Of a stretch of 34,889 nt of DNA, positions 26,348-27,271 are shown in pieces. How positions within the stretch are numbered: the first letter of the stretch is position 1; each line of letters opens with the position of its first letter. The stretch comes from an uncultured Candidatus Saccharibacteria bacterium. Lineage in GTDB: Bacteria; Patescibacteriota; Minisyncoccia; Phycocordibacterales; UBA9973. The notes beneath the pieces were generated by a model that was not told where the DNA came from, did not search any database, and was given only the letters and a program-made list of their open reading frames with translations. The DNA lies in NCBI GenBank assembly GCA_964634365.1, contig CAZWJU010000003.1, positions 1 through 34,889 on the forward strand. Reading direction: 5' to 3'. The translations under genes and the position numbers were made by a program.

Positions 26348-27271
26348 CTAATCCCTAAATGTTTTCTTCTCACATAGTTTGTTATATAGATCTTTCCAGT
26401 CTTTGGAATATAATTCAAATTCTTCTCTTTCTTTTTGAGACCATTTATGTTCTTTGTTGTGAGAAGATTTTACTCCTTTCTTTTCTATAGATGCAATCTT
26501 TTTTCTATTTAATATTGGACTTAGACCAAATTCTTTTGCAATCTTTACATAATATTCATAATAGTTCTTTCGTGCTTCATTTAACTTAAAGATAAAAATC
26601 TTCTCTTCTGGAATTTCTTCAAGCTGATTCCATATTTCTCTGTTAACCATTGCCCCCCACCAAGCTATTTTACCGATTCGAGTAAGTTTCATCCATTCTT
26701 CATAAAAGTCTCCATTTGGTACAAGGCGCGCAAAAAGATACAGCCAATACCACTTTTGATCAAAAGCGGGCTGAAAACCCAAAGCCAGGTCTTTATTTCC
26801 ACGTATATAGTGATGCGTAAAAAAACCCTTGTTATATATAGACTGAACAGTAAATTCCGGATCATTTATGCCGAACAAGACTCTTGCTGGTTTTAATCTC
26901 TCATATAACTCTTTTATACCATGTGAAAAAAAAGGACTATTAACAAATGCAATATCTCCCTTTTTCCAATCATCTACAATCCCTTTTTTTATAAGAGCAA
27001 TTATTCCTTCTGTATCTATCGGAAGTTTGTTGTATTTAATATATCTATACATAGACTCAGCCTCAAAATATCGCTCTGTTATCCCTGTCGCATTATCATG
27101 AGCATCTATTACATCCCCTAAAAGTCTTGTTCCTGAACGCGCAGCTAGAGTACCTAAAATAAGCCGCTTCCCGGAACTAAGACCTTTTTCGTATTCTGCA
27201 TCAATATTTTTTAAATCTTCTGCAGAAACACCTTTTTTGTAACGTGATATAAGAATATTTCCAATTTTCAT
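26348..27271 (-). CDS. sulfotransferase-fold protein
   Basis: LILGTLAARSGTRLLGDVIDAH resembles the 5'-phosphosulfate-binding loop (xRSGTxLL..H) of bacterial sulfotransferase families. The rest is not recognisable to me. Confidence 0.5.
   Translation of the reverse strand: MKIGNILISRYKKGVSAEDLKNIDAEYEKGLSSGKRLILGTLAARSGTRLLGDVIDAHDNATGITERYFEAESMYRYIKYNKLPIDTEGIIALIKKGIVDDWKKGDIAFVNSPFFSHGIKELYERLKPARVLFGINDPEFTVQSIYNKGFFTHHYIRGNKDLALGFQPAFDQKWYWLYLFARLVPNGDFYEEWMKLTRIGKIAWWGAMVNREIWNQLEEIPEEKIFIFKLNEARKNYYEYYVKIAKEFGLSPILNRKKIASIEKKGVKSSHNKEHKWSQKEREEFELYSKDWKDLYNKLCEKKTFRD

Follow-up and report, generated by a model that had tools for sequence, protein, structure and literature searches.

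Much environmental methylphosphonate comes from phosphonate-decorated polysaccharides, as does methane in oxygenated water, and the enzymes usually proposed for attaching phosphonates to glycans are LicD-like and TagF-like cytidine diphosphate (CDP)-alcohol phosphotransferases. Passages of Rice 2019 name LicD-like proteins in phosphonate clusters, call the phosphonate tailoring steps enigmatic, and have Fom1 making CMP-HEP, the cytidine monophosphate (CMP) conjugate of 2-hydroxyethylphosphonate (HEP) (PMC6697681). The attachment of phosphonates to surface glycans is an open question, and we describe here a candidate for that missing step: a gene that we call X, at positions 26348-27271 of contig CAZWJU010000003.1 (assembly GCA_964634365.1), of which a stretch of 34,889 nt (the window) was analysed. 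The window's genome (G000) comprises 753,051 bases with a completeness estimate of 100%; L-, G- and P-numbers below denote loci, genomes and proteins.

We read X, with somewhat more confidence than doubt, as a sulfotransferase scaffold put to use as a CMP-phosphonate:glycan phosphonotransferase, its cargo being HEP and perhaps methylphosphonate. X probably works like the LicD and TagF phosphotransferases while being unrelated to both. The gene and its key positions, relative to tyrosylprotein sulfotransferase (TPST), are as follows.

26348..27271, minus strand: X, a 307-aa soluble sulfotransferase-fold protein, proposed CMP-phosphonate transferase
27128..27145, minus strand: 5'-phosphosulfate-binding loop, residues 43-48, Arg45 corresponding to TPST1 Arg79 (invariant in alignment A1 of the X family; aligned to TPST)
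27074..27076, minus strand: Glu66, corresponding to TPST2 Glu99 and TPST1 Glu100 (sequence alignment; equal 21-residue spacing from the loop Arg)
26828..26866, minus strand: 3'-phosphate-binding strand and helix, residues 136-148, with Asn136 for Arg and with Ser144 and Lys148 kept (alignment to TPST)

X is a real, conserved gene: its open reading frame (ORF) begins with ATG, the plus frame across it is full of stops, and its homologues number 63 proteins at E<=1e-3 in a word-index search and 193 clusters at 50% identity. The nearest named relatives of the protein come from Patescibacteria metagenome-assembled genomes (MAGs), so that the window's genome is probably that of a Patescibacteria member. 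Its LAARSGTRLL..H motif, likened in a preliminary description of this DNA to the loop that binds 3'-phosphoadenosine 5'-phosphosulfate (PAPS), lies at residues 42-58 of the 307-aa product, as described. Because its top 19-residue hydropathy window reaches only 1.05, X is soluble, without a membrane helix.

Structure was needed to assign the fold, because Pfam gave no match to X (0 at E<=0.1, so that no Sulfotransfer_1/3 gathering score was reached). Weak Sulfotransfer matches occur in 4/52 X homologues (best E 7e-4), and the alignment A1 profile of the family against PDB returned noise only. The sole NCBIfam/PDB sequence match of X, to LrpA, was rejected as spurious. The AlphaFold2 model, built with 52 homologues, has a predicted local distance difference test score (pLDDT) of 92.5 and a predicted template modelling score of 0.90. 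Foldseek searches with this model place tyrosylprotein sulfotransferases on top (TPST2, E 4e-5), and a wide structural search gives TPST1 at Z 16.3, with a root-mean-square deviation of 3.7 Å over 222 residues at about 14% identity. Structural ranks 1-19 are all sulfotransferases, and nucleotide kinases appear from Z 9.4 downward. Similarly, the ESM Atlas neighbours of X are clusters with a sulfotransferase domain, and a 109-sequence profile of the X family finds TPST1 by sequence (E 2.5e-4). The predicted structure shows the sulfotransferase α/β fold suspected in the preliminary description, with no placement in a non-sulfotransferase P-loop family. X matches neither PF04991 nor PF04464 and its fold differs from both, so it is not a member of the LicD or TagF families.

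We take the 3'-phosphate-binding (3'-PB) motif to be Arg-x7-Ser, with presumed roles in TPST for its residues and for the basic residue that follows. Passages of one TPST paper name Arg79 and Glu100 of TPST1 as catalytic and describe the 3'-PB motif as conserved in all sulfotransferase members (PMC5562738). Arg45 is kept in 149/158 family rows, and the Glu66 position is Glu in 119/158. Of the 3'-PB motif, which the preliminary description had left to be looked for, only part survives: X lacks the Arg, having Asn136 instead, but keeps Ser144 and Lys148. The loss follows a line within the family: at >=33% identity, 0/66 homologues have Arg at position 136 (in one the position is gapped), and below 33% 83/92 do. 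In a quick maximum-likelihood tree of 97 rows, rooted at the midpoint, the Arg-less proteins form one clade of 42 rows, 41 of them non-Arg, with a Shimodaira-Hasegawa-like approximate likelihood ratio support of 98. A basic C-terminal motif, a pattern picked after the data were seen, is present in 50/82 Arg proteins vs 0/31 Arg-less ones.

The genes contiguous with X would supply a phosphonate donor (PepM, Ppd, the reductase and a Fom1-type cytidylyltransferase, CT), and a dioxygenase gene lies next to them.

24933..26294, minus strand: Fom1-type CT (residues ~20-150) fused to phosphoenolpyruvate (PEP) mutase (PepM) with an EDKx5NS motif (PF01467 and PF13714; TIGR02320 over cut-off)
27371..28525, minus strand: Fe-dependent alcohol dehydrogenase, putative phosphonoacetaldehyde reductase, yielding HEP (context; TIGR03405 below cut-off)
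28515..29645, minus strand: phosphonopyruvate decarboxylase (Ppd; TIGR03297 at 485 bits, cut-off 312.5)
23711..24943, minus strand: methylphosphonate synthase (MpnS)-type dioxygenase (6b9s E 4.5e-56; 6b9r E 7e-41)

The CT domain matches 5x3d at E 1.6e-40 vs 6e-9 for glycerol-3-phosphate cytidylyltransferase; we take 5x3d to be a Fom1 domain, the entry itself being labelled PEP phosphomutase. From its sequence, the CT-PepM gene beside X is expected to make CMP-HEP. The preliminary description had set X between phosphonoacetaldehyde reductase and PepM genes; the position and PepM hold, but the dehydrogenase, at 180 bits to TIGR03405 vs a cut-off of 424, is a phosphonoacetaldehyde reductase by context only. 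Neither the Fom1-type domain on the PepM gene nor the missing 3'-phosphate Arg had been mentioned there.

We collected 14 homologous loci from GTDB and 48 from metagenomes, many on short contigs, and counted neighbours in 24 Arg-less and 30 Arg-keeping loci after removal of duplicates and gapped rows. Left out were near-duplicates (L027, L036, L032, L058), a locus on L006's contig (L015), repeats of the window and L009 (L063, L064, L068), and rows with a gap at position 136 (L046, L060, L061). Up to 4 kb from the X homologue, a HIGH-type cytidylyltransferase is found in 14/24 Arg-less loci vs 0/30 Arg loci, and PepM, Ppd or reductase genes lie near the homologue in 10/24 vs 0/30; one or the other is found in 16/24 Arg-less loci. 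Conversely, a CysC-like kinase within 8 kb is found in 0/24 Arg-less vs 6/30 Arg loci. CysC-like kinase or sulfurylase genes occur in 0/24 Arg-less loci, and the Arg loci include a glutamine-kinase-like gene (4/30) and an ATP sulfurylase (1/30). The hidden Markov models behind these counts were built in part on the counted loci's own genes (CT from L019 and L023; kinase from L029, L031, L040 and L067), so those six rows match by construction; several assignments were independently confirmed by Pfam, NCBIfam or PDB.

Of eight GTDB loci at 54-69% identity to X, seven carry a CT-PepM gene no more than 2.3 kb away, in one case with its PepM domain degenerate; the remaining locus has a cytidylyltransferase without PepM. 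The pepM link that the preliminary description had raised therefore stands among close relatives, but across the wider Arg-less clade cytidylyltransferase is the steadier partner. Near Arg-less X homologues it occurs fused to PepM, fused to a PepM without the EDK motif (L003), alone (L005, L019, L023, L026, L044), or joined in frame to X itself (L022 and P0182, which share 56% identity). Even with a degenerate PepM (L003) or none (L005), X retains the CT as its neighbour. In L005:10915-11391, X stands with a lone Fom1-like cytidylyltransferase and no PepM was found in that genome (G005), which may be a decayed cluster, an incomplete MAG, or a user of scavenged HEP.

Genes for adenosine 5'-phosphosulfate (APS) and PAPS synthesis, reported in the preliminary description as not visible in the window, are missing from the whole genome: searches with PF01583, PF01747 and PF01507, with working controls, found no APS kinase, ATP sulfurylase or CysD/PAPS-reductase family member in it, and it has no ordinary Sulfotransfer_3 gene. 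ATP sulfurylase is absent from 10/10 genomes with an Arg-less X (nine GTDB relatives and the window's own), and APS kinase from 8/9 of the relatives; PF01507 finds no more than weak matches, in three of the nine (E 1e-4 to 9e-6). The ninth, G001, has a partial APS kinase beside two ordinary-looking sulfotransferases, on a different contig from X. A full APS kinase is found in 5/5 genomes with Arg-keeping homologues, a contrast confounded by lifestyle because these genomes are also much larger. By the two sulfotransferases of G001 (L067:140-4279, contig C7) lie a small HIGH-type nucleotidyltransferase and an APS-kinase-like gene; G001 has no Sat or CysD, and the small HIGH-type enzyme might stand in for ATP sulfurylase.

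X was not filed as a PAPS sulfotransferase because both the 3'-PB Arg and the donor supply were missing. For the same reasons, sulfation of the glycan or HEP, one of three options in the preliminary description, is disfavoured, and a CMP-phosphonate donor on a sulfotransferase scaffold is the best supported of them.

The acceptor is suggested by the wider window, a surface-glycan locus with a Wzx flippase, GT2 and GT4 glycosyltransferases, methyltransferases and deacetylases.

29652..32917, minus strand: three GT4 glycosyltransferases, directly upstream on a common strand (PF00534)
13575..14816, plus strand: Wzx-type flippase, marker of a lipid-linked glycan pathway as likely acceptor source (PF01943 / PF13440)

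Other members of the X family are fused to GT4 or GT2-like domains, and these fusions therefore point to a glycan acceptor. A dedicated but weak search returned no fused forms of X of greater length. Pyruvate-kinase barrel domains also lie beside or fused to X homologues (L031:8875-9843, L019:1499-2050, P0156, P0208).

In the pathway that we propose, PepM, Ppd and the reductase would convert PEP via phosphonopyruvate and phosphonoacetaldehyde to HEP, and the Fom1-type domain would turn HEP into CMP-HEP, possibly making CMP-methylphosphonate too where MpnS is present. CMP-HEP is a nucleotide 5'-mixed anhydride like PAPS, minus the 3'-phosphate. It would sit in the PAPS site of X, with Arg45 and the loop gripping the 5'-phosphate/phosphonate; Arg45 would stabilise the transition state and Glu66 would act as the base taking the proton from a sugar hydroxyl. 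Attack of this hydroxyl on phosphorus would release CMP and leave a phosphonate ester on the lipid-linked surface glycan, in the cytoplasm. The 3'-phosphate Arg would have been lost because the donor carries no 3'-phosphate.

HEP would be the common cargo, because MpnS is found in just 3/10 X genomes. The window's dioxygenase has a His/Gln/His triad, with MpnS-type Phe and Ile where HEPD has Tyr and Gly; these residues reportedly (Born et al. 2017) distinguish MpnS from HEPD. Genes of this type with the Phe/Ile residues lie at 23711-24943 of the window, at L002:2760-3908 and at L003:5328-7228, and include one in a Nomurabacteria MAG; the L003 gene, read by eye, is interrupted by a transposase-like ORF. 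All three MpnS genomes sit in one five-member X subclade with a two-residue insertion near residue 175. This subclade may handle methylphosphonate, which we offer as a lead. Methylphosphonate production by candidate phyla radiation (CPR) bacteria may be relevant to oxic methane; a passage of one lake study reports no mpnS in its metagenomes (PMC10734540).

A broader reading, tentative and on balance not one that we expect to hold, is that the donor has been swapped more than once in this unannotated sulfotransferase-fold family of at least 193 clusters at 50% identity: PAPS in some members, 3'-phospho-CDP-amidate in others, and CMP-phosphonates or CDP-alcohols in the clade without the Arg. Presence or absence of this Arg would then mirror that of a 3'-phosphate on the donor, and X would be a phosphoryl-type transferase on the sulfotransferase fold and, beside LicD and TagF, a third way of placing HEP or methylphosphonate on glycans, here in Patescibacteria. 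The product of the O-methyl phosphoramidate (MeOPN) pathway is given as 3'-phospho-5'-cytidine diphosphoramidate in passages of two papers (PMC6429109; PMC3907429). In L028, L035 and L040, the gene directly after the nucleotidyltransferase of a MeOPN-like cassette encodes an Arg homologue; the cassette also has a PRK05541-type kinase, a 776-aa enzyme resembling pyruvate phosphate dikinase and a protein similar to gamma-glutamyl-CDP-amidate hydrolase (E 1e-52, a score below cut-off). The Arg-keeping homologue could be the transferase of such cassettes, and we count its position there in favour of X as a CMP-phosphonate transferase too. These (L028, L035, L036, L040, about 3300-10800) lie on low-GC metagenome contigs and end in the Arg-keeping homologue. 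Two further loci, L021:8385-12502 and L009:1585-3413, have an Arg-less X near a nucleotidyltransferase and an Ldh_2-family dehydrogenase (by Pfam in L021, by eye in L009); L021 also has a pyridoxal phosphate-dependent threonine-synthase-like gene, and the donor of both may be a different activated acid.

Several points weigh against X as a CMP-phosphonate transferase. Fold, residue pattern, gene context and the lack of detectable PAPS synthesis are observed, and from these we infer donor, acceptor and chemistry. Arg loss in the X family is one evolutionary event, so the context contrast does not amount to 24 vs 30 independent trials. Missing PAPS synthesis is expected of any small Patescibacteria genome, and the related genomes are MAGs of unstated completeness. 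In the active site, the catalytic Lys159 of TPST is not kept, and the 3'-site retains its remaining two residues, Ser144 and Lys148, in Arg-less and Arg-keeping groups alike, so X may still bind a 3'-phosphate. Seven of the 24 Arg-less loci have no nearby CT, phosphonate gene or nucleoside triphosphate transferase, one of them (L009) despite 9.5 kb per side. In L019 a LicD gene stands at a distance of 0.8 kb from X and could consume the CT product in its place. L023 has a stand-alone CT that is closer to ethanolamine/glycerol-phosphate CT than to Fom1. Phosphonates are therefore not the only donors in the Arg-less clade, whose members taken together probably draw on several CMP-linked ones. 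Finally, L031, 58-63% identical to the phosphoramidate-linked homologues, adjoins a true ATP sulfurylase and APS kinase. Its downstream genes are the same as in the phosphoramidate-linked loci, and the contrast can be read either as donor modules swapped before one transferase or as a variable island before an ordinary sulfotransferase.

The occurrence of X and of other candidate transferases adds to these points. In a survey of 401 genomes of the class, PepM over cut-off occurs in seven; X accompanies it in the window's genome only and is missing from 6/6 others. We therefore rejected the idea that CPR phosphonate clusters generally include X (1/7 PepM-positive genomes). The rival TRANSFERASES in the window, a PntC/LicC-like and TagF-like pair, forms a separate unit on the opposite strand and could attach phosphonate without X.

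18711..19418, plus strand: PntC/LicC-like nucleotidyltransferase, rival activation module (6pd1 E 4.5e-14 and 1jyk E 1.3e-13, tied)
19421..20494, plus strand: TagF-like CDP-glycerol glycerophosphotransferase, rival phosphonate transferase (PF04464 E 4.4e-57)

A TagF-like gene is present in 6/10 X genomes and LicD in 0/10. X is not the only candidate transferase in the window; in three MAGs, G003, G004 and G006, which have X and a CT-PepM gene, neither a TagF-like gene nor LicD was found, a point in favour of X. Among the six X-less PepM genomes, three have a confirmed TagF-like gene near PepM and a fourth a similar-looking gene; the fifth has a capsule-synthesis protein and a B12 radical S-adenosylmethionine enzyme, and the contig of the sixth is too short. 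In two X-less CPR clusters (L091:11575-12900, L093:4471-5787), the slot of X after a Ppd-reductase fusion is taken by a 440-aa protein that is unrelated to X, has no meaningful Pfam, NCBIfam or PDB match and models at pLDDT 33. Read by eye, it has a nucleotidyltransferase-like DxD motif, and it is possibly another unrecognised phosphonate transferase.

Two alternatives we judge improbable. In the first, X is a true PAPS- (or APS-) dependent sulfotransferase acting on a glycan or HEP hydroxyl, with the donor coming from the host cell or an unrecognised enzyme and the TagF-like protein attaching the phosphonate. The 19 best structural matches, the retention of Arg45, Glu66, Ser144 and Lys148, the sulfate-activation genes at L031, and distant members with weak Sulfotransfer_1/3 matches in genomes having APS kinase all speak for it. 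Against this, PAPS synthesis was not found (PF01507 being weak in 3/9 relatives), the 3'-PB Arg is gone from the whole clade, and the clade is fused to or associated with cytidylyltransferases, never with cys genes in the loci examined. The second alternative, which we rate as comparably unlikely, has X acting on CMP-HEP otherwise: building a teichoic-acid-like HEP polymer, loading a lipid or protein, or hydrolysing the donor to control supply to the MpnS or TagF-like enzyme. It shares its donor evidence with the phosphonotransferase, the nearest fold is a protein-tyrosine sulfotransferase, and HEP has a free hydroxyl; yet the family's fusions and neighbours are glycosyltransferases, MpnS accompanies X in a minority of genomes (3/10), and some of the CTs that accompany Arg-less homologues probably have a product other than CMP-HEP.

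That X is a P-loop kinase, or serves the cytidylyltransferase as a nucleotide-binding partner without catalysis of its own, is very unlikely. The core fold is common to nucleotide kinases (Z 8-9.4) and the TPST catalytic Lys is missing, but sulfotransferases are far ahead (Z 16 vs 9), the loop is Arg-Ser-Gly-Thr with no Lys, the Walker A GxxxxGK[ST] of P-loop nucleotide kinases is absent, and the catalytic Arg and Glu are conserved. The last alternative involves one further gene of the window.

11165..11830, minus strand: P-loop kinase-like gene, possible donor 3'-kinase, uncharacterised (weak kinase matches)

We give little credence to a 3'-phospho-CMP-HEP donor, a PAPS mimic made by this gene as in Campylobacter MeOPN synthesis, for which Ser144 and Lys148 are kept and a related kinase lies ~1 kb upstream of CT-PepM in L007 and L008, but the kinase was not found in 7/9 related genomes and has no strong APS-kinase match, and the 3'-site Arg is lost. 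The kinase-like gene adjoins a methyltransferase, and the same pair precedes CT-PepM in L007 and L008; as a required partner of X it was rejected, being present in 2/9 related genomes.

The surroundings of X hold one further element.

27266..27390, strand not assigned: inverted-repeat element of 125 bp, located between the stop of the dehydrogenase gene and the start of X (z -4.4; 19-nt arms)

The same ends recur 123 bp apart on contig C2 of the window's genome (G000 C2:18005-18127), and in several relatives the stop and start codons at this site overlap or adjoin; the element looks like a miniature mobile element. An Rfam scan of 23500-30000 gave no match, and promoter-like sites around X were fewer than the shuffled expectation. 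The sequencing runs containing the sequence were wastewater DNA runs, two of which may be its source, with no RNA run among those listed. No X homologue was found in plasmids, phages or IMG/VR. L003 (CAYYTQ010000029.1) is labelled Gammaproteobacteria; the X protein there shares 62% identity with that of the window and is nested among CPR proteins, so that a mis-binned contig or a transfer is possible.

X is a small, soluble candidate with the donor-making enzymes encoded adjacent to it. If our reading is right, the sulfotransferase fold can move phosphorus groups, and one residue would help to predict the donor. A number of glycan-locus genes called 'sulfotransferase-like' would then have to be reinterpreted where the organism has no sulfate activation. 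A literature search, with most subscription journals outside its coverage, found no description of such an enzyme, so novelty is unproven; the cluster tables of Rice 2019 and of Li and Horsman 2022 might list the X family.

Compared with TPST1/2 and other PAPS-dependent sulfotransferases, X is alike in fold, in the 5'-phosphosulfate-binding loop Arg, in the catalytic Glu and in the 3'-site Ser and Lys/Arg. It differs in having Asn for the 3'-PB Arg, no Lys159 and no Pfam match, and in being a soluble protein from a genome without detectable PAPS synthesis. With LicD and TagF (PF04464), X would have the reaction in common, in which a sugar hydroxyl takes up the group of a CMP-activated donor and CMP is released; the fold is unrelated. 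The neighbouring CT-PepM shares its domain architecture with Fom1 of fosfomycin synthesis and matches 5x3d closely; here, in contrast, it stands in a glycan locus (Wzx, GT4/GT2), where CMP-HEP would be a transfer donor and not a transiently protected intermediate. Campylobacter MeOPN synthesis (Cj1415-1418; transferases Cj1421/1422) likewise uses a PAPS-like donor, and Arg-keeping relatives of X follow such cassettes; the window has none, and the likeness rests on donor type and the relatives' gene context.

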